In this document: in pieces, positions 17,033 through 51,856 of the stretch
How positions within the stretch are numbered: position 1 is the first letter of the stretch
How the letters are laid out: each line of letters begins with the position of its first letter
From: an uncultured delta proteobacterium
GTDB lineage: Bacteria > Desulfobacterota > Binatia > UBA9968
Direction: 5' to 3'
Length of the DNA stretch: 64,000 nucleotides
Assembly: GCA_963745035.1 (NCBI GenBank)
Contig: CAVUVW010000011.1
Span: 192,001-256,000 of the forward strand
Notes under the pieces: generated by a model
Seen by the model: the letters and a program-made list of their open reading frames with translations, nothing else
What the model was told of the DNA's origin: nothing
Database searches by the model: none
Program-made: the position numbers and the translations under genes

Positions 17033-17120
17033 TCACCGCCGAGGCGCGGAGGGCGCGGAGAAAAGAGGTTTCTCGTTAAAAAATATTTCGAACTCTGTGA
17101 ACTCCGTGTCTCTGTGGTGA
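17033..17120. repeat. Hairpin element with 9 bp periodic arms
   Basis: caccgccgaggcgcggagggcgcggag ... ctctgtgaactccgtgtctctgtggtg. Confidence 0.75.
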
Positions 17121-17160
17121 ATCATCTGCCACGGCAAACACGACAGAGTCTTTAGCTCTT

Positions 17161-20100
17161 ATGGCCAAGACAACCAAAAAAGCGGCGAAGAAAACCAATC
17201 CAAAGCCGCGCGCGGCGTCCTCGGCGGATTCGGTCTCGAAACTGAAGAAGACGATCGCCGCGCAGGGGCGGGAAATGCGCGAGGCCGCGGAGCAGCAGGC
17301 GGCGACTAGCGATATCTTGCGCATGATCGCCAGCTCGCCGTCCGATCTGCAGTCAGTCTTGGATACGATCGCCGAAAGCGCCGCTCGACTGTGCAGCGCG
17401 GATGACGCACTTGTGTGGCGAGTGAGTGGCAACGTTTTAGTGCTCGCTGCGCACTTCGGTCCGATACCCACGGTGGTGACTGAGGGTAGCGGGCATGTCA
17501 TCGATCGTGACACTCCTGCTGGGAGAGCGGTGGTCGACCGGCAAACTATCCATGTGCACGATCTCGTGAAAGCCGCCATTGATTTTCCCCGCGCTACGAC
17601 CCGCGGCATAGCCGTGGGAGTTCGGACTGCCCTTGCGGCACCCTTATTACATGAAGGAAACGTTATTGGCGTCATTCATATTCGCCGCACGGAGGTTCGG
17701 CCTTTTGCAGATCGTCACATCAAACTGCTCGAAACCTTCGCCGACCAGGCCGTTATCGCGATTGAGAATGCTCGGCTGATTGATGAGCAGCAGTCTCGCA
17801 ACCGTGAACTGACCGAAGCTCTGGAGCAGCAGACCGCGACAAGTGAAGTCCTGCGAGTCATCGCTTCCTCACCGACCGAGCTGCAACCGGTCCTCGACAC
17901 GCTGATCGCGAACGCCGTTCGGCTCTCCGGGGCAACCAGGGGGCATGTCCGGCAATACGGGGATGAGTTCTATCGTGTCGTGGCCCACTATGGCGAGACA
18001 CCGGAAATGATCGCCACACTCCGTGCCAACCCCCTGCCGGCCAGTCCGGAACTCCCTGCGGCTCGGGCGCTTCTCGGTGGCAAACCGGTCCATATACTCG
18101 ATGTTCAAGCGGAGACCGGAGTGCATCTCAATCTCGTGCGGCAAATGGGTACGCGAACATTGCTCGCCGTACCGCTGCTGCGCGAAGGAGCGAATATCGG
18201 TAGCCTCACGATCTGGCGCGATGTTTGTCGAACCGTTTACCGAACGGCAGATCGAGCTGGTCAAAACCTTTGCCGACCAGGCCGTGATCGCCATCGAGAA
18301 CGTGCGGCTGTTCCAAGAACTCAAGGAGTCGTTGGAACAGCAAACCGCGACGAGTGAGATCTTGGGCGTCATCGCCAGCTCGCCGACCGATCTACAGCCG
18401 GTGTTGGACACGATCACAGAGTGTGCCGCACGCGTGTGCGGCGCCGAAGATGCCGCCATGCGACTCGTTGATGGAAATGTGCTGCGCTTGGCCGCACACT
18501 ATGGACCGGTACCAGATGTCGCGCTGGAACGACCGATCGATCGCCACAATCCCGGTGGCCGGGCCGTAGTAGACCGAGAGATAATCCACGTCGAGAATAT
18601 GCACGATCAGGTAGCGAAAGAGTTCCCCGGGATTGTTGATACACATAGTCGCACCGCGGTTGGAACCGTGCTGGCCGTGCCCCTGATGCGAGAAGGTAAC
18701 GCTATCGGCGCGATCCACATTCGTCGCAAACAAGTCCAACCGTTTACCAATAAGGAGATTGCTCTTCTCAAAACCTTCGCTGATCAAGCCGTGATCGCGA
18801 TCGAGAACGTGCGCTTATTTAAGGAACTCGGCGAGCGCAACGCGGAATTGCGCGAAGCGCTGGAGCATCAAACCGCAACGGCCGAGGTGCTCGGCATCAT
18901 CAGCCGCTCGCCGACGGACGTGCAGCCGGTGCTCGACGCCATCGTCGAGAGCGCGGCGCGGGTTTGTGGGATCGATGACGTGGTGCTGCGACTCCGCGAG
19001 GGGAACAATATGGTTCCGCGGGCTCATTTTGGTCCCGTACCCATCGGCCGCGTCGAGATCAGTATTGATGAGCCACAGTATCGCTGGATGCGCGAGCATG
19101 GCACGCTCCACATTCCCGACGTCCGCGCGCAGAACGATTTCCCAATGTAGGTTCCGCAGCGGCTGCCCGCACCTTTTTGTTCGTTCCCCTTCGTCAGCAG
19201 GGGGAACTCATTGGAACACTCAACGCACGTCGCACCGAGGTGCGCCCCTTCACCCCGGCGCAGATCAAACTGCTCGAAACCTTCGCCGATCAGGCGGTGA
19301 TCGCCATCGAGAACGTGCGGCTGTTCCAAGAACTCAAGGAGTCATTGGAGCAGCAGACGGCGACGAGTGAAATCTTGGGTGTCATCGCCAGCTCGCCGAC
19401 GGATATCCAGCCGGTGTTGGAGTCAGTTGCCGAGAATGCGGCGCGACTGTGCGAGGCGACCGATGCGCATGATCTTCGCTGCGTCGAGGGTGACGAACTT
19501 CGTCTGTGGCGCTCATTCGGTTCAATCCCGATGCCGCCGAGCAGAGTTCGTACCCATCGATCGCAGTCGATATCCGCGGCCGCGCCATGATGGACCGGCA
19601 AACCATTCATATCGATGACCTGCAGCGGAGCGCTGAGACGAATTTCCTGACGTCCGAGGCTTCGCCAGCGAGCTGGATTCGGACTGTCTGTCGCACGCCG
19701 CTACTGCGCGAGGGCGATCGCAATCGGCGTTATCATGATTCGCCGCATGGAAGTGCGTCCCTTCACCGCAAGCAGATCAAACTTCTCGAAACCTTCGCCG
19801 ATCAGGCGGTGATCGCCATCGAAAACGTGCGGCTGTTCAAGGAATTGCAAGAGCTCAACGGAACTGCCGAGGCGTTGGAGCAGCAGACGGCGACGAGCGA
19901 AATCTTGCGGTGTCATCGCCAGCTCGCCGACAGATATCCAGCCGGTGTTGGACACCGTCGCCAAGAATGCCGCCCGGCTCTGCGAGGCGACGATGCCCAG
20001 ATTCGACTCGTTCGAGATCGACAGTGATTCGACTAGTGCGCATCCTATCGGCTACTCTCCAAGCGCCAGAATTTGTCCCCGATCGCCCGACTAAATCCCG

Positions 20101-23100
20101 GCGGCCGAGCGATTCTTAAGCGACAGACCTTCCATATTCATGACCTTCAGGAACGATCAAGGACGAATTCCCCGACAGGCACGCTTTAAGACGACGGGCT
20201 CCGGACGTTTCTTAGCGCGCCGATGATCAGAGAGGGAACGCCAATTGGCGTGATCAAATCCGACGCATGGAAGTGCGTCCTTTCTCGGACAACACAAATC
20301 ACACTGCTCGAAACATTCGCCGAGCAGGCCGTGATCGCCATCGAGAACGTGCGGTTGTTCAAGGAGATCCAGGAGCGCAACGCGGAATTGCGCGAAGCCC
20401 TGGAGCATCAGACGGCGACGGCCGAGGTGCTCGGCATCATCAGCCGCTCGCCGACCGACGTGCAGCCGGTCCTCGACGCCATCGTCGAGAGCGCGGCAAG
20501 GGTTTGTGGAATCGATGACGTGGTGCTGCGACTCAACGAAAATAATGTTCATGGTTCCGCGAGCTCATTTTGGTCCCATACCCATTGGCCAGGTCGAGAT
20601 CAGTATTGATGCCCCACAGATTCGCTGGATGCGCGAGCATGGCACGCTCCACATTCCCGACGTCCAAGCGCGGAACGATTTTCCGACGTTAGGGATCCCA
20701 GCGGCTGGCGTACTTTCTTGTCCGCTCCCCTTCGTCAGCAAGGCGAACTTATTGGACTATTGAACGCCCGTCGTATGGAGGTGCGTCCCTTCACCCCGGC
20801 GCAAATCAAGCTCCTCGAAACTTTCGCCGACCAGGCCGTCATCGCACATTGAGAATGTCCGGCTGTTCAAGGAACTGACCGAGGCGTTGGAGCAGCAAAC
20901 CGCGACGAGCGAAATCTTAGGTGTCATCGCCAGTTCGCCGACCGATATCCAGCCAGTGCTCGACGTTGTCGCTGAGAACGCTGCCCGGCTATGTGATGCA
21001 ACCGACGCGGTCATTCATCGCATTGATGGCGACGAGCTCCGACCAGTGGCGAATTACGGGCCATTGCCGGGACGGCCGGGTGAGGGTTCAGGTATTCCGC
21101 TAATGGATCGTCGATCTATACCCGGCCGAACCATAATTGACCGGCAGACACTTCACATTCATGATTTGGCAGCAGAACCAGAAGACGACCTCCCGCAGCG
21201 TTTCGCAGAAGTTCGGCGTTCGGACCGTGCTCGCTACGCCGTTGCTGCGCGAGGGAATTCCCATCGGGACGATTCATATCCGCCGCATGGAGGTCCGCCC
21301 GTTCACCGAGAAGCAAATCAAACTGCTTGAAACCTTTGCAGCACAAGCCGTCATCGCCATCGAGAACGTTCGGCTGTTCCAGGAACTCAAGGAATCGTTG
21401 GAACAGCAAACTGCAACCAGCGAGATCCTCGGCGTCATCGCCAGTTCGCCGACGGATATTCAGCCGGTGCTGGACGTTGTCGCTGAGAATGCTGCGCGAT
21501 TGTGCGACGCCGTGGACGCTCAGATGTGGCTCGTCGAAGCAGACAGAGTTCGATTTGCCGCCCAGTATGGATCGATCCCGAGTCCGAGGGTCCATGAGGG
21601 CAGGCCGATCGTTCGGGGTTTGGCGGGAGGGAGAGCTATCCTCGATCGAGAAGTCGTACATATTCCGGATACTTTCGATCCGGTCGTTGAAAGGGAATTT
21701 CCCGTAACCTGGGCACTGAGCCATGAGGTCCATATCAATACCTTGCTTGCCGCCCCGTTGCTCCGCGAAGGGATTGCCATAGGCTACATTATGATTCGTC
21801 GGCTCGAATCGCGGCCATTCTCGGAGAAGCAAATCGCGCTCCTCAAGACTTTCGCTGACCAGGCCGTGATTGCCATCGAGAACGTGCGACTGTTTAAGGA
21901 ACTGCAGGCGAGAACGCAGGAGTTGGCGCGCTCGGTCGGTGAACTGAAGGCTCTAGGTGAGGTCGGTCAAACGGTCAGCTCGACTCTCGACCTTGAAATT
22001 GTGCTGACGAGAATCGTTTCCCATGCGGTTCAGTTGAGCGGCACCGACGGTGGGGCGATTTACGAATACGACGAATCCTCGGAAGAGTTTCTGTTGCGCG
22101 CCACCCATCAGATGGACGAAGAACTCATCAACGCACTTCGCGCAAATCCGCCGCACTTGGGAGACGGGTTAGTGGGCCGGGCGGCGTCAAGCGTGAACCC
22201 ATACAAATCCCCAATATCCTCGAAGAGCGCACTTACGCGCCGCGCATGCGGCAGTTGCTCGAGCGGTTCGGCTTCCGTGCCAGCCTGGCCGTACCGTTGC
22301 TACGGGAAGACCGCATCATCGGCGGCTTGGTGGTACGGCGAAAAGCGACCGGCGAGTTTCGCCCCGAAGTCATCGAGCTTTTGAAAACCTTCGCCACCCA
22401 GTCCGTCTTAGCGATCCAAAACGCCCGGCTGTTCCGCGAGATCGAGGACAAGAGCCGGCAGATCGAGGCCGCCAACCGGCACAAGTCGGAATTCCTCGCC
22501 AACATGTCCCATGAGCTGCGCACGCCGTTAAACGCGATCATCGGCTTCTCCGAAGTCTTAGGGGAGCGACTGTTCGGCGAGCTGAACGAGAAACAAGCCG
22601 AGTACACCGAGGACATTCTCACCTCCGGGCGCCATCTCTTATCTCTTATCAACGAGATACTCGATCTCTCCAAGGTCGAGGCCGGCCGCATGGAACTGGA
22701 AGCTGGCCGCCTTCGACCTTCCCCTGGCCATCGACAATGCGCGCACCTTTGTGCGCGAGAGGGCCACCAAGCACGGCATCACGCTCGATGTAAGCGTTGA
22801 CGACCGTCTTGGCGACTACGTTGGTGACGAGCGCAAGATCAAGCAGATACTTCTCAATCTGCTATCCAACGCCGTCAAGTTCACGCCGGAGGGGGGACGG
22901 ATCGGCATTAACGCCCAGCAGGCCAACGGCGCGGTGGAAATCTCGGTCAGCGACACCGGCATCGGGATCGCGCCGGAGGACCAGCCAAAGATCTTCGAGG
23001 AATTTCGTCAGGTGGGGGCCGACTACGCGCACAAGAGCGAGGGGACGGGACTGGGGTTAACCTTGGCCAAGAAGTTTGTCGAGCTGCACGGGGGAAGGAT

Positions 23101-23167
23101 CTGGGTGGAGAGCGAAATCGGCAAGGGCAGCAAGTTCACATTCACGCTTCCGATCCCTTCCCAGTAA
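17161..23167 (+). CDS. Giant multi-GAF sensor histidine kinase 2 (10 GAF + HisKA + HATPase_c; frameshifted)
   Basis: Same module grammar as kinase 1; its last GAF and kinase core are nearly identical to kinase 1. Confidence 0.9.
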
Positions 23168-23208
23168 GGAGTCAGTGGTCAGGAGTAAGGGGCGAAGCAG
23201 AGAGAGGG

Positions 23209-23370
23209 AAAATTTCGAATAGCGAAATCCGAAATCCGAAACAAATTCAAATGATCCAAAAACTACAAATTCAAAACGAGCCAGACCGGATTCGAGGTTT
23301 TGGATTTTCCGATTTTGATTTATTTGGCTTTCGAGTTTGTTTCGGATTTCGATATTCGGATTTCGGATTT
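23209..23370. repeat. CGAAATC-heptamer hairpin element, empty copy A
   Basis: cgaaatccgaaatccgaaacaaa ... tttgtttcggatttcgatattcggatttcggattt. Confidence 0.9.
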
Positions 23371-23449
23371 AGTCGGGTGTGGTGAGTTGGCGGGAACATA
23401 CTCCGGAATCAGCAGAGTGTTTTCTCGGAAAATGGAGTGAGGTGGACAT

Positions 23450-24267: not shown

Positions 24268-24319
24268 GCGAATTCAGATCCGAAGCACTGGCGGGAGAAG
24301 ATCCAGATCGGAAAAGATT

Positions 24320-24450: not shown

Positions 24451-24497
24451 AAGTCGAGAATCCGAGAAGAGTATTCTGGCGCAAAGACGCGAATCAA

Positions 24498-24657
24498 AAT
24501 ATCGAAGCACGAAATCCGAAATTCGAAACAATTTTCAATGTTTAAAAAAACGAAATTTCAAACAACGACTATTCAGACTCAGTGTTTTGGATTTGCCGAG
24601 TTTGAGAGTTGCTTGATCGCTGATTGTTTCGGATTTCGATATTCGGATTTCGGATTT
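24498..24657. repeat. CGAAATC-heptamer hairpin element, empty copy B
   Basis: cgaagcacgaaatccgaaattcgaaacaat ... attgtttcggatttcgatattcggatttcggattt. Confidence 0.9.
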
Positions 24658-24678
24658 GGAACTTCCGGGATGTAGAGG

Positions 24679-27600: not shown

Positions 27601-30600
27601 CGAGCACGGCGCGCTTCATATTCCCGACGTTCGCGCGCAGAACGAATTCCCTTCACTGGGTTCCACCGGCTTCGTACCTATTTGGTTGTTCCACTTCTCC
27701 AGCAAGGAGAATTCATTGGGGTACTTGGCCGCGCGTCGCAACGAAGTGCGTCCCTTCACTCCCGCGCAGATCAAACTTCTTGAGACATTTGCTGATCAGG
27801 CAGTCATCGCACTCGAAAACGTGCGGTTGTTCAACGAACTCAAAGAATCTTTGGAGCAGCAAACCGCCACGAGTGAAATCTTAGGCGTCATCGCCAGCTC
27901 GCCGACGGACATTCAGCCGGTGCTGGATGCGGTGGCTGAGAGTGCGGCTCGCTTGTGCGAAGCGCCAGATGCCGTGATCTTCCGCCGAGATGAGGGTGTT
28001 ACTCGACCTGCGGCGCGGTATGGATCGATTCCATTGGCCCGGCCTATTGGAGAAGCTTTTCCTGACACGAGTGGATCGCCTCCTGGAAGAGCGATGATCG
28101 ATCGGAAAACGATTCATGTTCACGACATTGCTGCGGAACTCGATCCGAATATCCGGACTCCAAGCCCCGTCACATAACTACCGGTTCGCGCACGATACTG
28201 GCTACTCCATTGCTGCGTGAAGGCGTGTCAGCAGGCGCAATCATGATCCGCCGCACCGAAGTTCGCCCTTTCACTGATAAACAGATCAAACTTCTTGAAA
28301 CATTCGCTAGCCAAGCGGTCATCGCCATCGAGAACGTCCGGTTATTCCAGGAACTCCAACAACGCAATCGAGATCTTACTGAGGCGCTGGAGCAGCAGAC
28401 GGCCACGAGTGAGGTGCTCGGGTCATCAGCGGCTCGCCGACCGACGTGCAGCCGGTCTTCGATGCGATCGTGCAAAGCGCCACCAGGCTGTGCGAAGCAT
28501 CCTTCGGCTCGGCACACCGCTTCGAAGACGGCTTGGTCACGTTCGATGCGCAGCACGGTATGACGCCCGAACAGTTCAAAATCGGCAAAGAGCGATTTCC
28601 AACACCTCCGTCCCGAGAAACTGCTGTAGGTCGAGCGATCATGAGTCGAGAGGTTAGACATATTCACGACATCGAAGCTGATCCTGAATATGTCTTCATC
28701 CCTCATCAACGGCAGCTCAGCTATCGCACCGTGCTGGCTGTGCCACTGTTAAAGGAGGGCAATCCGATCGGTGCGCTTGGCATGTGGAGACGGGAAGTAA
28801 AGCCGTTCACAGAAAAGCAGATCGCTCTCATTGAAACATTTGCCGACCAGGCGGTCATCGCCATCGAGAACGTGCGGCTGTTCAAAGAGCTAGAGGAACG
28901 TAATCGCCAGATTACCGAAGCTGGAGCAGCAGACGGCAACGAGTGAGATCTTGCGTGTGATCGCGAGCTCGCCGACGGATATTCAGCCCGTACTGGATGT
29001 AGTCGCGGAGAATGCGGCGCGGCTTTGTGAGGCGAGTGACGCTCTGATTTATCGGCAGGCGGACGGCCGGGCCCACTTGGCAGCCCGATTTGGTGATATT
29101 CCTGTTGCGCCTGACCCGCTGCCCATCAGCCGTGGCTTCGTAGGCGGGCGGGCAATGGTGGATCGAAAAACGATTCATGTGCACGATGTCTCCGTGGAGA
29201 ACGAGACAGAGTACCCGGAGGCCAGGCATCTGCAACGGATCGCGGGAGCCCGTACCGTTCTGGGCACGCCTCTGCTTCGCCAGGGCGAACCCATCGGCTC
29301 GATCGTGATTCGCAGGCAGGAGGTTCGGCCTTTTACGGAGAAACACATAAAGCTCCTGGAAACGTTCGCCGACCAAGCTGTGATCGCGATCGAGAACGTC
29401 CGGCTGTTCAAAGAACTCGATACTCGCAATCGCCAACTCACCGAGGCGCTGGAACAGCAGACGGCGACGAGCGAGATATTGCGCGTGATCGCCAGCTCGC
29501 CAACGGATATCCAGCCGGTGTTGGATGTGATGGCCGAAAATGCCGCGAGGCTGTGTGACGCCACGGATGCCGCGATCATTACGAATTGAGGGCGACTCAT
29601 ACGGATCGTGGCGAATTATGGCAACATGCCGATATCCGGCGCGATCGAGTCTCGACCACTTGATTCGTGGTCGTTATTCCGGCTAGAGCGATGATCGACC
29701 GGCAAATGATACATATTCATGACATTGAGGCGTGCCGGAAGACAGATGGATTTCCCGAAGCCTCGGCTCTCGTTAGAAGTCTCGGCATCCGCACGGTTCT
29801 GGCAGCGCCCCTGCTTCGTGAAGGAACTGCGATCGGCGCGATTCTGATTCGTCGCAACAACGGTTCGACCTTTTAGCGAAAAGCAGATCGCGCTTCTAAG
29901 AACCTTCGCCGACCAGGCCGTGATTGCCATCGAGAACGTGCGGCTGTTCCAAGAGTTGCAGGAACGGACGCGCGAATTGGTGGAGTCCATGGAGGAAATG
30001 AAGGCACTGAGCGAGGTCGGGCAAGCAGTAAGCTCGACCCTCGATCTTGAAACTGTGCTGGAAACCATCGTCGCGCGGGCCGTCGAACTGTCGGGGACCG
30101 ATTGCGGCGTTATTTACGAATATGACGAGGCGGCCCAGGAGTTTAATTTGAGGGCGAGCCACCACATGGAAGCCGAGGCAGTTGAAGTGCTTAGGACGGC
30201 GCGCATCCGTCTCGGGGAAGGCGCAACCGGGCAAGCGGCGAGCACGCGCGCGCCGGTGCAGATCCTGGATACGTCCGAAGAGCAGCAACGAGCGGTCTCA
30301 AGGGTAAGACCCGTACTGAATCGATTGGGTTACCGCTCACTACTCACGGTGCCGATCCTGCGCGAGCAGCAGATCATGGGTGGACTGACGCGTGTGGCGG
30401 CGGCGGGTTGGGGAGTTTGAACCGGAGGTGGTTAAGCTCCTGCAAACTTTCGCGACGCAGTCGGCTCTGGCGATCCACAACGCGCGGCTGTTCCGCGAGA
30501 TCGAAGAAAAGGGCCGGGAGATCGAGGCGGCCAACCGGCACAAGTCGGAATTTCTCGCCAACGTGTCGCATGAGCTGCGCACGCCGCTCAACGCGATCAT

Positions 30601-31224: not shown

Positions 31225-31327
31225 TTATCTCGCAAAGGCGCAAAGGCGCTAAGTTAAAGGAGGTGGGAGATGAAATTTGTCTGCGTTTGTTTTTCTAAAC
31301 TTTGCGTCTTGGCGACTTAGCGAGAGA
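31225..31327. repeat. GCAAAG hairpin element, empty copy
   Basis: tctcgcaaaggcgcaaaggcgctaagtt ... aactttgcgtcttggcgacttagcgaga. Confidence 0.85.
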
Positions 31328-31349
31328 TCTCCGGATCCGGATCGGAGTA

Positions 31350-31794
31350 TTATCTCGCAAACGCAAAGGCGCTAAGTTATGACGGAGAATGATATCGGAA
31401 GAATCGTTGTCGATGCAGCGATTGCAGTACATCGGGAGCTTGGGCCGGGTTTGCTCGAAAGCGTGTACGAAGTCATTATGGCCTACGAATTAGGACGACG
31501 TGATCTCTCAGTGAGACGGCAGGTTCCGATACCGATCCACTACAAACAGATGATATTCGAAGAGGCGTTCCGCGCCGACTTGGTGGTCGAAGACAAGATT
31601 ATCATAGAGCTAAAATCAATTGAGCAAGTCAGCGAGGCCCACAAGAAACAGCTCCTGACTTATCTGCGGCTAACAGGCTGTAAACTGGGATTCCTTCTTA
31701 ACTTTGGTGAGGCGCTGATGAAGCGGGGCATAACGCGCACTGCAAACGGAATCGAGGATTTCTAAACTTTGCGTCTTTGCGCCTTTGCGAGAGA
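31350..31794 (+). mobile_element. GCAAAG hairpin cassette carrying the GxxExxY gene
   Basis: Arms 31350-31378 and 31760-31794 match the adjacent empty copy and abut the ATG and TAA. Confidence 0.7.
31379..31765 (+). CDS. GxxExxY family protein (PD-(D/E)XK nuclease-like fold)
   Basis: LGPGLLESVYE, FRADLVVEDKIIIELKS, QLLTYL and GFLLNF motifs. Confidence 0.93.
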   Translation: MTENDIGRIVVDAAIAVHRELGPGLLESVYEVIMAYELGRRDLSVRRQVPIPIHYKQMIFEEAFRADLVVEDKIIIELKSIEQVSEAHKKQLLTYLRLTGCKLGFLLNFGEALMKRGITRTANGIEDF

Positions 31795-31809: not shown

Positions 31810-32187
31810 ATGGCTAATGAACTGATTTTGATCGTCGAGGATAATGAAAAGAACCGGAAGCTTGCCCGGGATGTACTCCAGGTCAAGGGTTATAGGACCA
31901 TCGAAAGCGAAACGGCGGAGGAAGGGCTTAAACTCATTGTAGAGAAAGGTCCGGACCTCATTCTTATGGACATCCAACTGCCGGGCATGGATGGCATCAC
32001 GGCGATGAAACAGCTCAAGGCCGACCCCGGCACAACAAGCATTCCGGTCATCGCGATCACCGCGTCGGCGATGACGCACAACAGGACGACTATGCTGGCG
32101 GAGGGATTCGACGGCTACCAGACCAAGCCGATCAGTCTGAAAGATTTTATCGGGGAAATTGAAAGAGTGCTTTCAGTACACAAGTAA
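31810..32187 (+). CDS. Single-domain response regulator (DivK-like)
   Basis: ILIVEDN, PDLILMDIQLPGMDG, IPVIAITA and TKPI. Confidence 0.92.
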   Translation: MANELILIVEDNEKNRKLARDVLQVKGYRTIESETAEEGLKLIVEKGPDLILMDIQLPGMDGITAMKQLKADPGTTSIPVIAITASAMTHNRTTMLAEGFDGYQTKPISLKDFIGEIERVLSVHK

Positions 32188-32793
32188 ATCCGAAGCACGA
32201 ATTTCGAAATCCGAAACAAATTTCCAATGCTTAAATAACAGAAAATACAAAACTGCAGCTAAAGATTCGCTAGCATAAGATACAAATGGAAACCGTCGGG
32301 CTAGGCACAGCCAAAACGAAGCCACCAAGAAAATATGATCTGGAAGATCGGACCCTTGAGTTCGCCAAAAATGTGCGGACATTTGTTCGGCAAATTCCGA
32401 AAACCATAGCGAATATTGAAGATTCTAAGCAAGTCGTTCGATCGTCCGGCTCCATTGGCGCAAATTACATAGAAGCGAATGAATCTATCGGCAAGAAGGA
32501 CTTCCTGATGAGAATCCGAATCTGCCGCAAGGAAGCTAAGGAAACTCGTTATTGGTTGCGCTTGATTGAAATCGTCGACAATCCGACTCTGGAGAAATAT
32601 AGGGTTGAGCTCATCGGGGAGGCGACCGAGTTAATGAATATATTCGGCGCTATTCTTCGTAAAAGCGAATAGATCTTTGAAATTCAGAAGGCCCCGAAGG
32701 ATCTAATTCGGAGTTCGAAGTTTTGAATTTTCTTCGTTTGACATGCATTTGATTGTAATTTGATTCGGATTTCGAGATTCGGATTTCGATATT
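32186..32793 (+). mobile_element. CGAAATC hairpin cassette carrying the four-helix-bundle gene (filled copy C)
   Basis: Left arm 32186-32254 and right arm 32719-32793 are homologous to the four empty copies. Confidence 0.75.
32286..32672 (+). CDS. Four helix bundle protein (23S rRNA intervening-sequence protein / Avd-like family)
   Basis: DLEDRTLEFA, QVVRSSGSIGANYIEA and KEAKETRYWLRLI motifs. Confidence 0.92.
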   Translation: METVGLGTAKTKPPRKYDLEDRTLEFAKNVRTFVRQIPKTIANIEDSKQVVRSSGSIGANYIEANESIGKKDFLMRIRICRKEAKETRYWLRLIEIVDNPTLEKYRVELIGEATELMNIFGAILRKSE

Positions 32794-33916: not shown

Positions 33917-34078
33917 AAAAGTCGAAGCACGAAATCCGAAATCCGAAACAAATTCGAATGGTCAAAAAAAATGGAATGTTCCAAACGGTGCTGATTTCTG
34001 ATTCCGCGTTTGGAATTTGCCCGCGTTTTGGATTTGTCTGTCTTTGTTTCGGATTTCGAAATTCGAATTTCGGGTTTT
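33917..34078. repeat. CGAAATC-heptamer hairpin element, empty copy D
   Basis: cgaagcacgaaatccgaaatccgaaacaaa ... tttgtttcggatttcgaaattcgaatttcg. Confidence 0.9.
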
Positions 34079-34706: not shown

Positions 34707-35753
34707 ATGAATGTGCTCTTGATGGGTTTACTCGCTCTTTTCGCATGGACGGCATCCACTTCGGCGCAGGCCGGGAAGCCGGTGTCGATGGCCGAGCTCG
34801 CGGCCTATAACAAACCGGACCGGGAAAAAGTGCTCTACGAAGGCGCGAAAAAAGAAGGCCGGTTGATGTGGTACACCTCGCTTACCGGCGGGCCGAACAG
34901 CGATGCGCCCAAGGTGTTCGAGGCGAAGTACCCGGGCCTGAAGCTCGAAGTTTACCGCGGTGACAGCGACGCGATCATTCAGCGAGTGCTGCAAGAGGCT
35001 CAAGCGAAGCGCTTCCTCGTCGACGTGATCGAAACCACGTTCCCCGTGCTCAAGGTGATGCAGGAGTACAAGCTGCTGGCGCCGTACTTTTCGCCGCACC
35101 TGGCGCAGTATCCGGACGAGGCAAAGGAAAAAGCCGAAAAAGAGTTGGTCTATTGGGCGACCGATCGCGAGTCGTATATCGGTCTCGCGTATAATACAAA
35201 TTCCGTCCAGGGAAACGCAGTGCCGAAGGGCTTCGAAGATCTGCTCAAACCCGAGCTGCGCGGCAAGATCGGCTTTGCCACGACGGACACCGGCGCGCGC
35301 GTCATCGGCGCAATGATTGCGAGCAAAGGCGCCGAGTTCGTGCAGAAACTGAAAGCGCAGCAGATCACGCTGCATTCGGTATCCGGACGAGCGATTCTCG
35401 ACATGGTGATTTCCGGCGAGCTGGGTGTGTCGCCGACGGTTTTTCTCAGTCATTCAAGAGTATCGATTGCCAAAGGAGCGCCGATCAAGTGGGTGCCGAT
35501 GGAATTCGTGCCGACCAACGCCGGCGGCGTGGCCGTGCCTGCCAATGCGCCGCGCCCGCACGCGGGACTGCTATTCAGCGATTTTCTGCTCAGCCCGGAA
35601 GGACAGAAATTCCTCGGCAAGTACGGCCTGGACAGCGCGATGAACAAGCCGAGTTTCCAGCGCTACTACGCCGAAGCGGGAATGACCGCGGCGCAGTACG
35701 AGAAAGAAAACGAGAAATGGGAGAAGCTGCTCCGGGAAATCGGCAGGAAGTAG
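34707..35753 (+). CDS. ABC-type extracellular solute-binding protein (Fe3+/AfuA-like)
   Basis: Signal peptide, GAKKEGRLMWYTS, LAYNT and DFLLSPEGQ. Confidence 0.82.
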   Translation: MNVLLMGLLALFAWTASTSAQAGKPVSMAELAAYNKPDREKVLYEGAKKEGRLMWYTSLTGGPNSDAPKVFEAKYPGLKLEVYRGDSDAIIQRVLQEAQAKRFLVDVIETTFPVLKVMQEYKLLAPYFSPHLAQYPDEAKEKAEKELVYWATDRESYIGLAYNTNSVQGNAVPKGFEDLLKPELRGKIGFATTDTGARVIGAMIASKGAEFVQKLKAQQITLHSVSGRAILDMVISGELGVSPTVFLSHSRVSIAKGAPIKWVPMEFVPTNAGGVAVPANAPRPHAGLLFSDFLLSPEGQKFLGKYGLDSAMNKPSFQRYYAEAGMTAAQYEKENEKWEKLLREIGRK

Positions 35754-35813: not shown

Positions 35814-35973
35814 AAATTCGAAGCACGAAATTCGAAATCCGAAACAAATCCGAATGACCGAAAACCAGAAATCTGAAACGAGTCTGAAATCGGATTTATT
35901 TTGAAAATTTCTTCCGATTTTGACTTATTGCTTCCAACTTTGTTTCGGATTTCGATATTCGGATTTCGGATTT
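35814..35973. repeat. CGAAATC-heptamer hairpin element, empty copy E
   Basis: cgaagcacgaaattcgaaatccgaaacaaa ... tttgtttcggatttcgatattcggatttcggattt. Confidence 0.9.
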
Positions 35974-42893: not shown

Positions 42894-42896
42894 GGT

Positions 42897-43490: not shown

Positions 43491-44372
43491 ATGGAAAATC
43501 GCCGCTACGATTATTCACCGATTATTCGCCGGCCGAAGATCGAATGGCCCGATCATGGGCGTATCGCGCTCTGGGTGGCGCCGAACATCGAATACTTTCA
43601 CTTCGACATGCCGATCCGCGGCTCGGGCAGCAATCATACGCCGGACGTGCCGGGCTACACCTTGCGCGATTACGGCTCGCGCGTGGGCGTGTTTCGCATC
43701 ATGGACGTGCTCGATAAGTATGGCATCCGCGCCAGCGTTCTTCTCAATGCCGAAGTGTGCGAGCAGCATCCGCCGATCATCGAGGAGGGCAATAAACGAA
43801 AATGGGAATGGCTCGGCCACGGCATGACCAACAGCGTTTCGATGCTCGATTACAAGCCGGAGGAAGAGCGCTCGATCATTCACAAAGTCAAAGAGATCAT
43901 CACCAAGGGCACCGGCAAGGCGCCGAAGGGCTGGCTCGGTCCGGGGCTGGGCGAGACCGCTGATACTCCAGATCACCTCGCGGCGGAGGGATTCGAATAC
44001 GTCTGCGACTGGGGCAACGACGAGCAGCCGACGCCGATGCGCGTCAAGAGCGGCCGGATGATCGTCGTGCCTTACGAGTTGGGCGTCAACGATATTCGCG
44101 TCTTTATCCGCGAGAACCACACGCCGGAGCAATACTACCGCATGGTGTGCGACCACTTCGACACGCTCTACAAAGACAGCGCCTCGGGCGGGCGCGTGCT
44201 CTGCCTGCCGCTTCATCCGTTCGTCATCGGCATGCCGTTCCGCATCAACTATCTCGACAAGGCGCTGGACTATATGTGCTCGCACGAAGGCGTGTGGCGC
44301 ACGACGAGCGGTGATATCGCGGAGTGGTACTACAAGAACTATTATAAAGATCCGGGGCGGTATGAAGGGTAG
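43491..44372 (+). CDS. Polysaccharide deacetylase family (PuuE-like)
   Basis: YSPIIRRP, DYGSRVG, GWLGPG and LHPF. Confidence 0.88.
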   Translation: MENRRYDYSPIIRRPKIEWPDHGRIALWVAPNIEYFHFDMPIRGSGSNHTPDVPGYTLRDYGSRVGVFRIMDVLDKYGIRASVLLNAEVCEQHPPIIEEGNKRKWEWLGHGMTNSVSMLDYKPEEERSIIHKVKEIITKGTGKAPKGWLGPGLGETADTPDHLAAEGFEYVCDWGNDEQPTPMRVKSGRMIVVPYELGVNDIRVFIRENHTPEQYYRMVCDHFDTLYKDSASGGRVLCLPLHPFVIGMPFRINYLDKALDYMCSHEGVWRTTSGDIAEWYYKNYYKDPGRYEG

Positions 44373-44388
44373 GGTCGAGTGAGTAAAA

Positions 44389-44520
44389 TTGGAGTGTTGG
44401 AGTGATGAAGCATGTGGAGTGATGGGTTTCGGAGTCGGGCGCTGCGCAAGGTCGAGTAGGTTGCGCAAGTTTCGGGCTTGGAACCAACACTCCATCACTC
44501 CAATACTCCACCACTCCATT
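44389..44520. repeat. GGAGT-octamer hairpin element
   Basis: ttggagtgttggagtgatg...ggagtgatggg ... ccaacactccatcactccaatactccaccactcca. Confidence 0.85.
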
Positions 44521-44537
44521 CTTCTAGGAGTTCGCTT

Positions 44538-45978: not shown

Positions 45979-45994
45979 CCGGTTAAGCAATCGA

Positions 45995-46708: not shown

Positions 46709-46948
46709 AAAATTCCTCGGACCGCCGCGCTCGTCTCAAGGCTAGCGCAAAAGTCTTTGTTTCGCACTACAGAGCCGCGGTGACAATCGGAGATTTAGAC
46801 GCCGTGGACGTGAAAAAGTTCATCTTCGCCATCTTGTTTTTTTGTCGATCGGCTGCGCGACGCATCCCTCGCCGCGAGCGGCGAAAGGGCGAACAAATCC
46901 AAACGATGACGGCCGCCTTGTTACAGCAGGTTCGTCTCAGCCGGGCCA

Positions 46949-48298: not shown

Positions 48299-48382
48299 GG
48301 TGATGGAGTGTTGGAGTAATGGAGTATTGGGGAATCCAATCCGGAACCAACACTCCACCACTCCAGTACTCCAACACTCCAA
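48298..48382. repeat. GGAGT-octamer hairpin element
   Basis: tggagtgttggagtaatggagtattgg ... ccaacactccaccactccagtactccaacactcca. Confidence 0.85.
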
Positions 48383-48453
48383 TCTTTTCCGCCTTGCCGC
48401 CCATTGCAACTTTTTGATAGGAAGGGAGCAATTCGCAGAGAAAGGATCTCTCC

Positions 48454-49449
48454 ATGATCATTGACGTTCATAATCATATCGTTGCCGGCGAGCAGCTACA
48501 GACCTTTCAGGCGGGGCTGATCAACAGCGCTGGATTCCACCGGCCGCGCGGCGCGGTGGTGACGGAAAAGCATATCCAGGAAGCGAAGTGGCACGGCCAC
48601 CGCCATTCGGAAGTCTTGGGCGAAGTGGGAACGGATTACGCCTTTATCTCCCCGCGGCCTTATACGATGATGCATTCGGCCAAGCCGGAAAAGATCGTGC
48701 ACTGGTACTGCGAGGCGGTGAACGATGCGCTCGCGCTGCAGGTCAAGATGGAGCCCAAGAAATTTCGCGCCATCGGCGGTCTGCCGCAAAACGGCGGCGT
48801 GCCGGTCACCAACACGTTCGATGAGATCGATCGCTGCATCAACGATCTGGGATTTGTCGGCATTATGATCAATCCGGACCCGGGCGAAGGCGACGGGCAA
48901 ACGCCGGCCATGGGCAATGAATACTGGTACCCGCTTTACGAAAAGATGGTGAAGATGGACATTCCCGGACTCGTGCACGCGGCGAGCTGCAAGAACCCGC
49001 GCGAGTCGTTTCACGGCCATTTCATCACCGAAGAGAGCATCGCGATTCTCTCGCTCGTCGATTCCAAGGTTTTTCAAGATTTTCCCAAATTGAAATTGAT
49101 CATTTCCCATGGCGGGGGCTCGGTGCCCTATCAAGTCGGGCGCTGGCGCTCGCAGCTCCGCGGCCCGAACGATACCGAAACTTTTGATCAGCGGCTGAAG
49201 CAGCTCTACTTCGATACCGCGCTTTACAACGTCGAGTCGCTGAAGCTGCTTTTTCGCATCGTCGGGCCGGAGCGCTGCCTCTTCGGCACCGAGCGGCCCG
49301 GCGCCGGCTCCAAGACCGATCCGCGCACCGGCAAGTGGTACGACGACGTGCGGCCGAACATCGAAAGCATCCCGTGGCTGAAGACGGAGGACAAAGAAAA
49401 GATTTTTCAGAAGAACGCCGAGCAGGTGTTCAGCCGGTTCAAGCAGTAA
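48454..49449 (+). CDS. Amidohydrolase-2 family, LigJ (4-oxalomesaconate hydratase)-like
   Basis: MIIDVHNH, SPRP, INPDPG, WYPLYEK, SHGGGSVPY and FGTE. Confidence 0.8.
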   Translation: MIIDVHNHIVAGEQLQTFQAGLINSAGFHRPRGAVVTEKHIQEAKWHGHRHSEVLGEVGTDYAFISPRPYTMMHSAKPEKIVHWYCEAVNDALALQVKMEPKKFRAIGGLPQNGGVPVTNTFDEIDRCINDLGFVGIMINPDPGEGDGQTPAMGNEYWYPLYEKMVKMDIPGLVHAASCKNPRESFHGHFITEESIAILSLVDSKVFQDFPKLKLIISHGGGSVPYQVGRWRSQLRGPNDTETFDQRLKQLYFDTALYNVESLKLLFRIVGPERCLFGTERPGAGSKTDPRTGKWYDDVRPNIESIPWLKTEDKEKIFQKNAEQVFSRFKQ

Positions 49450-49458
49450 GCGGGAAGA

Positions 49459-49487
49459 TGTGGAGTGATGGAGTAGTGGAGTATTGG
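49459..49487. repeat. GGAGT-octamer left arm only
   Basis: tgtggagtgatggagtagtggagtattgg. Confidence 0.7.
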
Positions 49488-49536
49488 GTCGATTCTCCGC
49501 AGCTCGCTGCATTAAGTAAATCGGCTATCCGAAGTC

Positions 49537-49569
49537 CGTCATTTCCGCATGTCTTAAGCGGGAATCCAG
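49537..49569. repeat. GTCATTCCCGC-type REP-like half element
   Basis: cgtcatttccgcatgtcttaagcgggaatccag. Confidence 0.5.
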
Positions 49570-49618
49570 GCGGACTCGAAATTGGACGCCCGACCCATTA
49601 ATTGATTCAATAACCTCG

Positions 49619-50878
49619 ATGTCGCCAGAAATTGTTAATCTGGACTTTGCCGATCTCACGCCCGACCAGCAGGTAGGCCGGCTCAAGGATCAATTCGTTT
49701 TATTGCGCGGCCAAGACGCCGTCGTGCGGGCGCGAGTCGGCGAGTTACCCGTGCGCCAGTATATCTCGATGTTGGAGCGCGGTTATCGAATCGGGCTGGA
49801 ACGAGACGGCGAAAGCTTCACGCTTGTCCTTCGGCCCGACGGCTCGACCCCGCGTTTGGGCCTTCGCGGCGCGCATTCAGTGGTGAGCCACGCTGACGGG
49901 CGCGTCTATACCAATACGAGTGACAATCGGATCGCGGTCATCGACGCCTCGACGCGACAGGTGCAAAGGCATATCTCATCCGGCGACGATCCGTCGCATT
50001 TGGAATTGTCTCATGACGGCAAACGGCTTTACGTCGCCAACAGCGGCTCCAACGACGTCACGATTATCGATACGACGACCGATCAAACGCTTGCGACGGT
50101 TTCAACGGGAAGGCGGCCGCTGCTTCCGTGCGTGGCTGCAAATGGCAAGTCGGTCTATTTGCCGAGCGGGCCGGACCGGAATGTGACCGTGCTCGGAAGC
50201 GACGGGGAATTTCGCGCAAAAGTTCCAGTCGGGCTCGCGCCGCACGACATCGCCGTTTCCCCTGATAGCCGTTGGGCCTATCAACCCAACTCCGGCTCAC
50301 ACACGGTAACAGTCATTGACGGTTTGAATTACTCCGTGGCCGGCGAGATCACAGTCGGTCTCGGACCCGGGCACATCGCCTTCGACCCGGAGAGCCGCTA
50401 CGCCTATGTGGCCAACACGGTTTCGAATGACGTGACGGTCGTCAGGACGAGCGATCATGAAGTCGTGGCGACGATTCCCGCCGGCAAAGGCGCGCATCTT
50501 CCCGCGCTCAGCCCGGACGGGCGCTACGGCTATGTCGCCAATTTTGCGTCCGACGATCTGACGGTATGGGATTGCGGCGATCATCGCGTTGTCGCCACGA
50601 TCCGTGTCGGGATTTATCCACACTTCTTCGCCATCAGTCCAGATGGAAAGTGGATAGTGGTGTCGAACACAGGTGAATCGAGCATCTGCCTGATTGACGC
50701 CCACGATCACGAAACACGAGCACGACTCCCAGTCGGCGCCGCCCCGGCGCATCTCGCTTTCACCTCAGATAGCGAGTTGGCTTTCGTCGGCTGCGAGAGC
50801 ACGGATGAAGTGGCCGCGATCGACCTGCGAACGCAAACCGTCGTCGAGTTGATCAAAGCAGGAGAGGTCGTTCCGTGA
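49619..50878 (+). CDS. YVTN/YncE beta-propeller with a short N-terminal DUF2249-like domain
   Basis: Repeated YVANSGSNDVTxID and SPDG blades. Confidence 0.85.
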   Translation: MSPEIVNLDFADLTPDQQVGRLKDQFVLLRGQDAVVRARVGELPVRQYISMLERGYRIGLERDGESFTLVLRPDGSTPRLGLRGAHSVVSHADGRVYTNTSDNRIAVIDASTRQVQRHISSGDDPSHLELSHDGKRLYVANSGSNDVTIIDTTTDQTLATVSTGRRPLLPCVAANGKSVYLPSGPDRNVTVLGSDGEFRAKVPVGLAPHDIAVSPDSRWAYQPNSGSHTVTVIDGLNYSVAGEITVGLGPGHIAFDPESRYAYVANTVSNDVTVVRTSDHEVVATIPAGKGAHLPALSPDGRYGYVANFASDDLTVWDCGDHRVVATIRVGIYPHFFAISPDGKWIVVSNTGESSICLIDAHDHETRARLPVGAAPAHLAFTSDSELAFVGCESTDEVAAIDLRTQTVVELIKAGEVVP

Positions 50879-51015
50879 TCTGGTTTGCCAATCTCCCGTG
50901 ATCCCTTTTTGAAGTCCTCGGTCGACGACAAACCGACCTAGTATCTCGGAAAACTTTATTCCGAGGCGGTTTTGGTCTAAGAGGTAGAGAACGCAGCGAA
51001 GGACTCAACTCCCGA

Positions 51016-51813
51016 GTGAAAATAACTCCCGCCCTCGAACTTCGTAACGTCTCCCACGAAGCGAACGGCAAGCAGATTCTCGAGTCGATCAACTGGGTGG
51101 TTCAACCCGGCGAGCACTGGGCGATTCTCGGTCCCAATGGCTCGGGCAAAACGACGCTCGTCAAAATTGCCAGCGGCTATCTTTGGCCGAACCGCGGCGG
51201 CGAAGTTTACCGCAAAGGCAAGACGCTGACCCATCTTCCCGAACTGCGAAAAAGCATCGGTTGGGTAACCGCTTCGTTGGCGGGCGAAATCCCAATCCAT
51301 GAAAAAGCTCTGAACACCGTGGTTTCCGGGAAATTCGCCCAGATCGGTTATGTCGGTGGAACCTGGGGCGAGGCGAGCCGTTACGATTACACTTGCGCGC
51401 GGCAATATTTGAAAGAGCTCGGTTGCGAGCACGTCGGCGAACAGTCGTTCGGCACACTGTCGCAAGGCGAGCAGCAAAAAGTTCTCATTGCGCGGGCGCG
51501 CATGACTAAACCCTATCTGATCATACTCGATGAGCCGTGCGCCGGCATGGACCCGGGCGCTCGGGAAAAATTTCTCGCGGCGCTGAGCAAAATCGGCCGG
51601 CAGAAGAGAATTCCGGCGCTTATCTATGTGACGCATCATATCGAAGAGATCCTGCCGCTGTTTCGTAAAACGCTGGTGCTGAACGCCGGTAAGGTGCTCT
51701 ATTCGGGGCCGACCGGCAGCGTTCTCAAGGGCGATGTGTTGAAAAAATTGTATGGAGTTTCTTTGACGATGATCAAGCGCAAGGGACGTTATTGGCCGGT
51801 GACAAAAAAATAA
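51016..51813 (+). CDS. ABC ATP-binding protein (ModF/YlmA-like)
   Basis: GPNGSGKT, LSQGE, ILDEPCAGMD and VTHH. Confidence 0.9.
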   Translation: MKITPALELRNVSHEANGKQILESINWVVQPGEHWAILGPNGSGKTTLVKIASGYLWPNRGGEVYRKGKTLTHLPELRKSIGWVTASLAGEIPIHEKALNTVVSGKFAQIGYVGGTWGEASRYDYTCARQYLKELGCEHVGEQSFGTLSQGEQQKVLIARARMTKPYLIILDEPCAGMDPGAREKFLAALSKIGRQKRIPALIYVTHHIEEILPLFRKTLVLNAGKVLYSGPTGSVLKGDVLKKLYGVSLTMIKRKGRYWPVTKK

Positions 51814-51826
51814 GAGAACCCGAGCA

Positions 51827-51856
51827 AGATTTATCCCTACGGGCGAAATGACAATT
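51827..51856. repeat. TGTC/GACA-family REP-like half element
   Basis: Reverse complement matches 24355-24384 at 26 of 30 nt. Confidence 0.7.

Follow-up and report, generated by a model that had tools for sequence, protein, structure and literature searches.

Repeat-built palindromic elements in empty and gene-filled forms, with IVP or GxxExxY cargo genes, in an uncultured delta proteobacterium and its relatives

Introduction

The closest described systems to the elements considered here are the intervening sequences (IVS) of 23S rRNA genes, known from Leptospira, Coxiella and Xanthomonas, in which a long stem of terminal inverted repeats (28 bp in Coxiella; PMC4990558) carries in its loop a gene for an S23p or IVP protein of ~120 aa. 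As described in PMC4990558, their distribution is sporadic, horizontal transfer has been inferred and an origin from a mobile element has long been suspected, with Ralph and McClelland in 1993 (as cited there) suspecting that the open reading frame (ORF) within the IVS serves mobility; the same source treats the origin and mobility of these sequences as open since the 1990s. Here we describe elements of a similar plan in a 64,000-nucleotide (nt) stretch of DNA, which we refer to as the window (G000:C11:192001-256000), taken from G000, the 7.4 Mb, 28-contig source assembly of an uncultured delta proteobacterium. The window holds palindromes with arms built from short tandem units, some of them empty and two of them enclosing a single gene, which encodes a GxxExxY protein (PF13366) in one case and an IVP protein (PF05635) in the other. 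This element class, with its empty and gene-filled forms, is real, widespread and horizontally mobile as a unit of arms and cargo, in support of what had been proposed when the window was read without database searches (the sequence-only reading), and its best reading is as the non-rRNA counterpart of the ORF-bearing 23S rRNA intervening sequences.

The likeness to the 23S rRNA IVS lies in the long inverted-repeat stem with an IVP gene in its loop. The known IVS sit in rRNA, whereas the present elements are intergenic and lie just past stop codons; they also differ in their arms of tandem 7-9-nt units, their abundant empty copies and their second, unrelated cargo, GxxExxY, and in showing no sign of RNA-level selection on the stem. 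The 23S rRNA gene of G000 measures 3004 nt against a 2925-position model and so has no large insert, and none of 240 cargo loci matched the rRNA operon region by blastn. A search of Rfam gave nothing at gathering thresholds for the window, with only three microRNA-family matches (E 0.35-0.74), and no match for 14 cargo loci.

Other described elements share part of this plan. Repetitive extragenic palindromes (REPs) and the REP doublets that form hairpins (REPINs), linked to REP-associated tyrosine transposases (RAYTs), are likewise short extragenic palindromes present in tens to hundreds of copies, often past genes, with conserved arms and variable loops, but the arms here are repeat arrays of 24-40 nt and the gene linked to them lies inside the hairpin and encodes an IVP or PD-(D/E)XK protein. 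Bacterial MITEs (miniature inverted-repeat transposable elements), examples of which are Correia, ERIC, RUP, BOX and Nezha, are also small, non-coding, intergenic inverted-repeat elements co-transcribed with their neighbours; the present elements differ in that no target-site duplication and, in a screen that covered the Y1 transposase family, no transposase-bearing parent insertion sequence (IS) was found for them, and in that the arms are common to the copies but the internal sequence mostly is not. Integron attC cassettes are promoter-less single genes whose imperfect palindromes act as single-stranded hairpins, the asymmetry of which sets orientation. The present elements share the promoter-less single-gene cassette with a hairpin, but the gene lies within the hairpin rather than beside it and the elements are dispersed in operons rather than gathered in one array; no integrase was seen nearby in the window, where a search by integrase family was not made. 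Free-standing homing endonuclease genes are similar as small selfish genes with a nuclease fold (which applies to GxxExxY only), rampant horizontal transfer, and empty and filled sites, but IVP is not a nuclease, no cognate empty allele was seen at the filled slots in eight related loci, and the palindromic arms have no equivalent in that system. In the literature covered, which leaves aside subscription journals and family-database comments, we found no publication on the repeat-built arms, the empty copies or an architecture common to both cargos.

Filled elements and their cargo

Elements in the window were located by an inverted-repeat search of positions 16000-53000, by reading of the sequence and by a motif scan. 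The search gave 45 inverted-repeat pairs, and the arms of the longest are made of short tandem units. Both cargo genes lie within one operon of histidine kinase, receiver and receiver/cyclase genes, with the following features.

31225-31326, no strand: empty GCAAAG hairpin with period-8 arms, 6 nt past the histidine-kinase stop codon
31350-31795, + strand: filled GCAAAG element, whose 5' arm stops at the ATG and whose 3' arm begins at the stop codon
31379-31765, + strand: GxxExxY/PDDEXK_3 cargo gene (128 aa) in the filled GCAAAG element
32186-32788, + strand: filled CGAAATC element with outer heptamer arms and inner arms
32286-32672, + strand: IVP cargo gene (23S_rRNA_IVP, four-helix bundle, 128 aa) in the filled CGAAATC element

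The CGAAATC arms that enclose the IVP gene lie at 32191-32222 and 32757-32788. Two of the arm families had been described as having a filled copy with one 128-aa gene, and these are GCAAAG with GxxExxY and CGAAATC with IVP.

The GxxExxY protein matches PF13366 (E 7.8e-42) and also TIGR04256, scoring 142.8 bits (cut-off 22) and 144.5 bits (cut-off 35), and its residues E27, D67, E77 and K79 are invariant in 39 homologues, in the E-D-E-K arrangement that is the PD-(D/E)XK catalytic pattern. Profile matches above curated cut-offs and invariant residues together uphold its earlier assignment as PD-(D/E)XK-like. An AlphaFold (AF2) model with a predicted local distance difference test (pLDDT) score of 93.7 has an alpha-beta fold, for which Foldseek returned weak, generic PD-(D/E)XK matches, the best being Cas4 (4ic1, E 2.3e-3), with the Holliday-junction resolvase Hjc (2wiw) at 5.5e-3 and further nucleases after it; no relative with a solved structure was found by sequence. 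Judged from this model, GxxExxY is plausibly a structure-specific nuclease.

The IVP protein matches PF05635 (E 1.9e-13) and also TIGR02436, and it matches 2rld, a structure entry with five chains. Comments in TIGRFAMs refer to large paralogous families for both IVP and GxxExxY. S23p is described as a homopentamer of four-helix bundles (PMC4990558), and Avd as a pentameric and obligatory partner of the reverse transcriptase of diversity-generating retroelements (DGRs) (10.1101/2023.10.23.563531). IVP genes have been seen within cas operons, one such position lying between cmr3 and cmr2 (PMC3936711), and in rRNA insertions of candidate-phyla bacteria (PMC11270868), and the table in PMC3424549 lists PF13366 as 'Unknown' with 'multiple transfers'. 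Among 72,556 plasmid records, 8 carry GxxExxY, each of them classed as non-mobilizable, and none of 50,697 phage records does.

Elsewhere in G000 the same gene families recur, with three PDDEXK_3 loci and 18 IVP matches in total, several of the IVP matches being fragmentary. When the upstream flank was aligned to the reverse complement of the downstream flank (score at least 28, no shuffle control), flank-to-flank repeats were present in two of three PDDEXK_3 rows, the third scoring 22, and in 11 of 17 IVP rows. The units of these filled copies vary (AGGCAAT, CGTGAT, GTTCAANNN, TAGTGAG, AATGGAT, AAGGATA, GATTTTN, CGAGGGT, CGAAATC), and the other IVP proteins are only 14-34% identical to that of the window. 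The cargo is about 115-130 aa long, with one gene in each filled loop.

Linkage of arms and cargo across phyla

Relatives of three cargo lineages, from more than 20 phyla, were drawn from a species-representative genome collection and sampled by cargo. The window GxxExxY has 379 confirmed relatives, the best 80 of which are 65-83% identical to it and belong to 21 named phyla; arms whose flank-to-flank score exceeded the best of five shuffles by 6 or more were present in 68 of the 77 testable loci among these 80, 65 of the 68 having C(G/A)CN(A/G)AG units and 57 a period of 8, and the 5' arm ends at most 3 nt from the start codon in 27 loci. For the window IVP, the best 80 of 181 confirmed relatives (60-75% identical) gave 68 loci with arms, all of the CGAA type and 65 with a period of 7, and an odd unit, GCAC/ATAT, recurs in many of them. 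Record titles among these 80 include metagenome-assembled genomes (MAGs) of the candidate phyla radiation (Patescibacteria group), Planctomycetota, Nitrospirae/Nitrospirota, Verrucomicrobia, Armatimonadetes and Terriglobia (Acidobacteriota). In a second IVP lineage, that of the GTTCAA-armed copy on contig C6, arms were found in 69 of 80 loci, with periods of 7, 8 or 9 in 67, and the units pass from GTTCAANNN in the nearest relatives to GTTCAAN, GTCCAAA, GTTTCAA, GTTTCGA and others as protein identity drops. Arms in the cross-phylum loci are about 28-37 nt long. A genome-wide link between arm family and cargo family, on which the sequence-only reading had staked its proposal, holds both in G000 and in all three of these lineages (68/77, 68/80, 69/80).

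When 73 GxxExxY proteins were placed on a tree, the arm type (CGC vs CAC; 58 labelled) changed three times, the first ten of 200 shuffles giving 16-20 changes, and host phylum (62 labelled rows, 21 phyla) changed 37 times, where the first ten shuffles gave 45-51. Arm type tracks the cargo tree and host phylum does not, a result that speaks for co-inheritance with frequent host switching, not for co-adaptation, because kin share labels. One cargo lineage carries the same arm sequences through more than 12 phyla, and pairing is kept though the units change, with perfect 26-27-nt arms of different unit orders in L009, L025, L033 and L053 and with 89% of 1505 arm positions pairing overall. Such comparisons indicate that arms and cargo have been inherited and moved between phyla as one unit, and that the arm sequence is specific to the cargo lineage.

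A more elaborate tandem-unit arm occurs in the IVP loci L228, L232 and L247, from MAGs of Kiritimatiellae, Kiritimatiellia and Lentisphaeraceae, in which the arms are ~90-116 nt long and each unit contains a small GC-rich hairpin.

The orthologous kinase-receiver-cyclase locus

Orthologues of the receiver-cyclase that are 73-83% identical, from same-genus and same-order genomes, gave eleven loci that were mapped with the window genes. Eight of the eleven span both intergenic slots, slot 1 between kinase and receiver and slot 2 between receiver and cyclase; L177 belongs to G004, L178 to G003, L179 to G007 and L180 to G023.

Slot 1, G000: empty and filled GCAAAG elements
Slot 1, L173 and L174: filled GCAAAG element alone
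Slot 1, L175: frameshifted filled GCAAAG element and an empty
Slot 1, L179: tandem of three empties and one filled GCAAAG element
Slot 1, L176: GATTTTG-type hairpin
Slot 1, L177: degenerate arm-like sequence
Slot 1, L178 (G003) and L180 (G023): different GxxExxY lineage between CACGAAGG arms
Slot 2, G000 and L173: CGAAATC element with IVP
Slot 2, L177: disrupted copy of the CGAAATC element with IVP
Slot 2, L174 and L175: empty GCAAAG hairpins
Slot 2, L179 and L178: GCAAAG hairpin, or half of one, within a TAAGGAGT-type hairpin
Slot 2, L180: CACGAAGG empty
Slot 2, L176: little

The GxxExxY protein in slot 1 of L178 and L180 matches PF13366 at E ~1e-43 and is 43% identical to that of the window; the kinase beside the slot is 79-86% identical. 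The states seen at this one locus are absent, empty, filled, frameshifted, tandem and nested, and they show that the same intergenic slot has been used repeatedly and independently by different lineages. Absent, empty and filled alleles at orthologous sites amount to the presence/absence polymorphism that a mobile element, as first proposed, would leave.

The neighbourhood varies in other ways. A solute-binding-protein gene (34707-35753), between the cyclase and Nudix-like genes, is present in L173-L176 and L183 and has no match of at least 45% identity in L177-L180, which is a presence/absence difference beside the hairpins. Upstream of the kinase, the ORF 28951-29589 protein has matches in four to six successive stretches, some of them overlapping, 5' of the kinase in relatives (window 28446-30420, L173-L180), which suggests a long sensor protein of repeated ~200-aa modules whose number differs between genomes.

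Genome-wide census

The whole of G000 was searched with a 10-mer seed and ungapped extension for inverted repeats with a spacing of at most 800 nt and arms of at least 18 nt, which gave 276 inverted repeats and, at an arm periodicity of at least 0.6, 121 clusters. Of these, 102 were assigned by motif to unit families and the remaining 19, GC-rich and likely to be coding sequence or chance, were excluded. On four contigs (2.2 Mb) there are 65 periodic inverted repeats at the same limits of periodicity and arm length, against none after shuffling within 200-nt blocks. The families and their numbers of elements in G000 are as follows.

TGGAGT: 32 (loose motif, includes at least one GATTTT element)
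GTTCAA: 20
CGAAATC: 11
GAGGAT: 10
AGGCAAN: 8
AAGGATA: 7
GATTTTN: 6
GCAAAG: 4
AAAGTA: 2
CACGAAG: 2

Each arm consists of 3-5 units of 7-9 nt in tandem, and the arms stay conserved as the loops drift. In 87 of the 102 elements the loop is no longer than 120 nt, in five it measures 121-300 nt and in ten it exceeds 300 nt; the empty form makes up about 85-90% of copies. IVP or GxxExxY is present in nine of the ten elements with a loop above 300 nt, and the remaining one (C13:1167201) has no called gene. Where paired arms stand 250-800 nt apart, what lies between them is either IVP or GxxExxY or no gene. Purine-rich first arms occur in 72 elements, pyrimidine-rich ones in 17 and intermediate ones in 13. 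This purine-first pattern, which the sequence-only reading had noticed and tied to the transcribed strand, is real as a topological bias and is independent of strand: the bias stands, and the tie to transcription falls because the reverse complement of an arm-loop-arm' structure keeps the same first arm.

Two GATTTT-family empties, at G000:C2:8023-8181 and G000:C14:408720-408871, have loops that are 96% identical over 114 nt, and this pair is the sole clear sign of recent copying among 65 loops. Arms also occur in an integron-like array of small minus-strand genes at G000:C13:1772001-1800500 (L184:1-16000, L185:1-12500), which includes genes for Phd/YefM, ParE, DUF2283, DUF4258, PIN-like, ORF6N and helix-turn-helix (HTH) proteins and a group II maturase fragment, together with at least eight IVP genes or fragments whose arms are of the CGTGAT or AAGGATA kind; a near-perfect palindrome of ~32 nt recurs about ten times between the genes.

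Other elements in the window

Beyond the kinase-receiver-cyclase operon the window contains further elements, dispersed in operons between protein-coding genes.

17037-17116 (listed part 17033..17120), no strand: empty CGCGGAG/CTCTGTG hairpin of the GCAAAG superfamily, with 5' CGCGGAG units at 17037-17062 and 3' CTCTGTG units at 17091-17116, lying 42 nt past the stop of ORF 15366-16991 (sequence reading, motif scan)
23211-23370, + strand: empty CGAAATC hairpin with heptamer arms, inner arms and a short apical loop
24325-24341, no strand: solo GCAAAG-type 5' arm, a half element (motif scan)
24492-24665, + strand: empty CGAAATC hairpin with an asymmetric GCAC/ATAT unit (repeat search, motif scan)
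33917-34078, + strand: empty CGAAATC hairpin, 3 nt past the receiver-cyclase stop codon
35780-35796, no strand: solo GCAAAG-type 5' arm (motif scan)
35814-35973, + strand: empty CGAAATC hairpin (repeat search, motif scan)
44388-44518, no strand: empty TGGAGT (GGAGT) hairpin of period 8, 16 nt past the stop of ORF 43491-44372
48304-48381, no strand: empty TGGAGT (GGAGT) hairpin with a 24-nt loop (repeat search, motif scan)
49461-49484, no strand: solo TGGAGT-type (GGAGT) 5' arm (motif scan)

Most of the families named in the sequence-only reading were recovered. Repeat search and motif scan returned its five two-armed CGAAATC copies, its two GGAGT copies and one arm, and its single CGCGGAG/CTCTGTG element. 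Of the three two-armed GCAAAG copies claimed, two were found along with solo arms and the related CGCGGAG/CTCTGTG element. The TGTC/GACA family is probably chance: the pair at 19674-20140, with a complementarity of only 76%, falls within sequence that reads as coding, and it was dropped.

A third 128-aa ORF (20223-20609, + strand) has no Pfam or NCBIfam match and does not lie between tandem-unit arms; the region 5' of it (19600-20200) reads like a disrupted GAF-type coding sequence.

Position, orientation and the level of DNA or RNA

Genes in G000 were called from codon usage (6664 genes). The 102 elements fall in 32 '++', 37 '--', 26 convergent and 7 divergent spacers, the genome as a whole having 1357, 1401, 808 and 869, respectively, among its 4435 spacers of at least 50 nt, so that 95 elements lie downstream of at least one gene and seven in divergent spacers. 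The distance from the upstream stop codon has a median of 13 nt (interquartile range 6-40, n=95), which extends to the whole genome the nearness to stop codons first noticed in the window; in 11 elements the overlap with a called gene exceeds 40 nt, for the most part where the gene call is doubtful. Across phyla, and with genes taken by a longest-ORF heuristic, GxxExxY is co-oriented with its upstream neighbour in 56 of 69 loci and with its downstream neighbour in 46 of 65. Co-orientation with the upstream gene fits a promoter-less cassette, and we infer that the cargo is expressed by read-through from that gene.

Where the flanking genes are co-directional, asymmetric CGAAATC elements, marked by the GCAC/ATAT unit, point the same way as those genes in 10 of 10 cases in G000 and in 7 of 10 in relatives, the latter from crude ORF calls with one locus counted twice, and this orientation bias points to a single-strand-aware step. 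Relative to the cargo gene, the marker reads G/A in 17, A/G in 8, A/A in 9 and G/G in 2 of 80 loci. An amplified symmetric form exists in the related genome G009, in which the GCAC unit is present in both arms of pairs ~120 nt apart, with 69 pattern matches over many contigs and no cognate IVP found at E<=1e-20.

RNA-selected stems should show more G·U than A·C mismatches. On the sense strand the counts of G·T and A·C were 38 and 37 in 53 GxxExxY loci and 66 and 75 in 56 IVP loci, and on the flanking-gene strand they were 30 and 34 in 62 G000 empties, with no wobble excess. Such strand-symmetric complementarity fits DNA rather than RNA wobble, and we read it as a DNA-level palindrome kept by function or copying; of the RNA and single-stranded DNA hairpins that had both been entertained, the RNA-level one is not favoured. 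Intrinsic terminators were rejected as an account of the empties, of which only 10 of 81 have a T-rich tail, against a background of 4.5%. The absence of target-site duplication seen in the window was confirmed in 42 GxxExxY and 45 IVP loci, where the lengths of direct repeats at the outer ends of the arms equal those of shuffled sequence.

Four soil and rhizosphere metatranscriptome runs contain 5-10% of window words, and their contigs cover conserved parts of the kinase and cyclase together with some arm-loop-arm contigs of other organisms; a further contig, of 240 nt, extends from the 3' end of IVP across the 3' arm into the cyclase gene. None of these contigs shows transcription, ends or processing. 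Soil metatranscriptome contigs (window 31253-31767) link both GCAAAG arms across 12-32 unrelated letters, and these are empty GCAAAG hairpins of other organisms in RNA libraries and no proof of transcription.

Proposed mechanism and alternatives

We favour, at a probability of roughly 60%, the view of the element as a DNA-level, hairpin-dependent, transposase-less cassette whose tandem units are predicted binding sites of the cargo protein, with the protein-arm step by itself held at much lower confidence. Movement would be a strand-aware process at the level of DNA that depends on a hairpin or cruciform, in which the tandem units would bind an oligomeric cargo protein, the GxxExxY nuclease would make the cut, a task that in IVP elements would fall to a structure-specific nuclease of the host, and copying into a new site would use host repair or replication; the empties would be non-autonomous derivatives or landing sites. 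The CGAAATC arms have about five units, and we speculate that one IVP protomer sits on each. Taken further, the units may be an address readable by protein, with the pentameric IVP ring or the GxxExxY nuclease reading its own array in a single-stranded DNA hairpin and driving a transposase-free cut-and-copy, with host repair, to positions after genes; this bolder version is tentative, and we would sooner doubt it than rely on it.

Several observations weigh against the cassette. IVP has no known catalytic fold, and no insertion or excision event was seen between near-identical genomes. In none of the eight complete orthologous loci is there an empty of the same family where the slot is filled elsewhere, a lone GCAAAG empty never being found in slot 1 nor a lone CGAAATC empty in slot 2. 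TGGAGT has ~50 two-armed empties in G000, no pair of arms 251-800 nt apart and no filled copy, and the loops are mostly unrelated to one another (16 weakly similar pairs among 65), unlike those of ordinary MITE families. The idea that empties arose by internal deletion was rejected, since early GxxExxY codons that by eye seemed kept in GCAAAG empties did not exceed shuffles in the 7 loops scored, in which no trace of the gene could be detected. That nesting is general was also rejected: a strict census found no nested pairs, a looser test found an inner repeat in one of 27 long loops and this was not periodic, and there are individual cases only, at C17:170892-171138 and in slot 2 of L178 and L179.

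The distribution of empties and cargo belongs on the same side. Arms that match a 20-nt CGAAATC pattern with at most three mismatches occur in 23 of the 31 related genomes; the genus has them in 17 of 18, family f2 in 5 of 5 and family f3 in none of 7. There are 148 matches in G009, 82 in G023, 77 in G012 and 34 in G019 against 0-2 for reversed-pattern controls, whereas the cognate IVP (E<=1e-20) was found in four, namely G000, G012, G015 and, as a truncated copy, G004, and was not found in G009 despite its 148 arm matches. Some of these genomes are incomplete, so that 'not found with the window IVP query' differs from absence, and the tallies include an unpublished genome, G005, on which no claim depends. 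Because empties abound where the cognate gene was not found, the relation of autonomous to non-autonomous copies is unproven, and with the commonest family, TGGAGT, lacking a filled copy in G000, the autonomous/non-autonomous pairs of the sequence-only reading are not upheld. The empties may be old non-autonomous copies with constrained arms, landing sites for homing cargo, or structures useful to the host.

The main rival takes up these very facts. Homing would make the empties an independent and older repeat class, propagated by a trans-acting factor or retained for a host function, whose cognate copies IVP and GxxExxY, as selfish loop genes, would invade by double-strand-break repair with the arms as homology, much like homing endonuclease genes. 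It is rather unlikely, and it accounts well for empties spread far wider than cargo (arms in 23 of 31 genomes, IVP in 4), for TGGAGT without a filled copy in G000, for cargo lineages specific to an arm family, for the lack of target-site duplication, for the nuclease residues retained in GxxExxY and for cargo in either orientation with respect to arm asymmetry (17 G/A vs 8 A/G). It fits poorly with the orthologous slots, where no same-family empty faces a filled copy, with an IVP that is not a nuclease and with arms of about 28-37 nt, which are short for RecA-type homology; the cross-phylum sample was chosen by cargo and so says nothing on the distribution of empties. That the hairpins serve the host in the manner of REP elements, as 3'-end stabilisers, RNase III sites, terminators or sites for supercoiling or proteins, with the genes as passengers, is less probable still. 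Their place just past stop codons and depletion in divergent (promoter) spacers, the conservation of arms while loops drift, their abundance without cargo and the known use of IVS stems as RNase III substrates (PMC4990558) would all suit such a role, but there is no excess of G·U over A·C on the sense strand, T-rich tails are scarce (10 of 81 vs 4.5% background), no Rfam family matches, families replace each other at one slot, and the same arms follow one cargo lineage through more than 12 phyla.

The two remaining explanations seem to us quite improbable. An IVS-like route at the RNA level, with RNase III excision from the operon transcript and spread through an RNA intermediate by a reverse transcriptase in trans, IVP acting like the Avd of DGRs, draws on the homology of IVP to S23p and Avd, the latter being described as an obligatory reverse-transcriptase partner (10.1101/2023.10.23.563531), on the co-orientation of GxxExxY with the upstream gene (56 of 69 loci) and on the orientation bias (10/10 and 7/10); the missing wobble signature, the absence of a reverse transcriptase in or beside the window elements, and GxxExxY elements that share the architecture without any Avd-like protein leave it little room. 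Least credible is an origin as ordinary MITEs from a conventional IS, or as REPINs whose RAYT is encoded elsewhere in the genome. There are 4-5 loci of the Y1 transposase (PF01797, Y1_Tnp) in G000, one of them with solo AGGCA-type 3' arms on one side ~430 nt away, but none of the four examined has paired tandem-unit arms within 900 nt, Y1 being the only transposase family screened; nor is there a target-site duplication, IVP and GxxExxY are the only genes found between arms, and the many arm families follow cargo lineage. The earlier statement that the elements contain no transposase or reverse transcriptase agrees with this, within the same limit of the screen.

Meaning of the elements

IVP/S23p (PF05635) and GxxExxY (PF13366) are very common small proteins without a known role, and both gene families are now placed in lineage-specific, repeat-built palindromes with which they cross phyla, and whose empties number tens to hundreds per genome. 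A vague idea of a 'selfish element' becomes in this way a defined element, with arms, units, an asymmetric marker and a cargo protein. For annotation, the hairpins interrupt operons and may affect the expression of neighbouring genes. We regard them as a variant of the IVS-type hairpin cassette, with a fair chance of meriting a separate class. On the favoured view, 23S rRNA intervening sequences that bear an ORF would be a special case, in which the same element landed in an rRNA helix. If the reading of the units as an address for the cargo protein is true, the elements would form a new class among prokaryotic mobile elements, one whose two 'mobility' proteins are unrelated to each other. IVP/Avd-like and GxxExxY proteins would thereby gain a first function, and the ORF-bearing rRNA intervening sequences would be explained as the same element inserted in rRNA.

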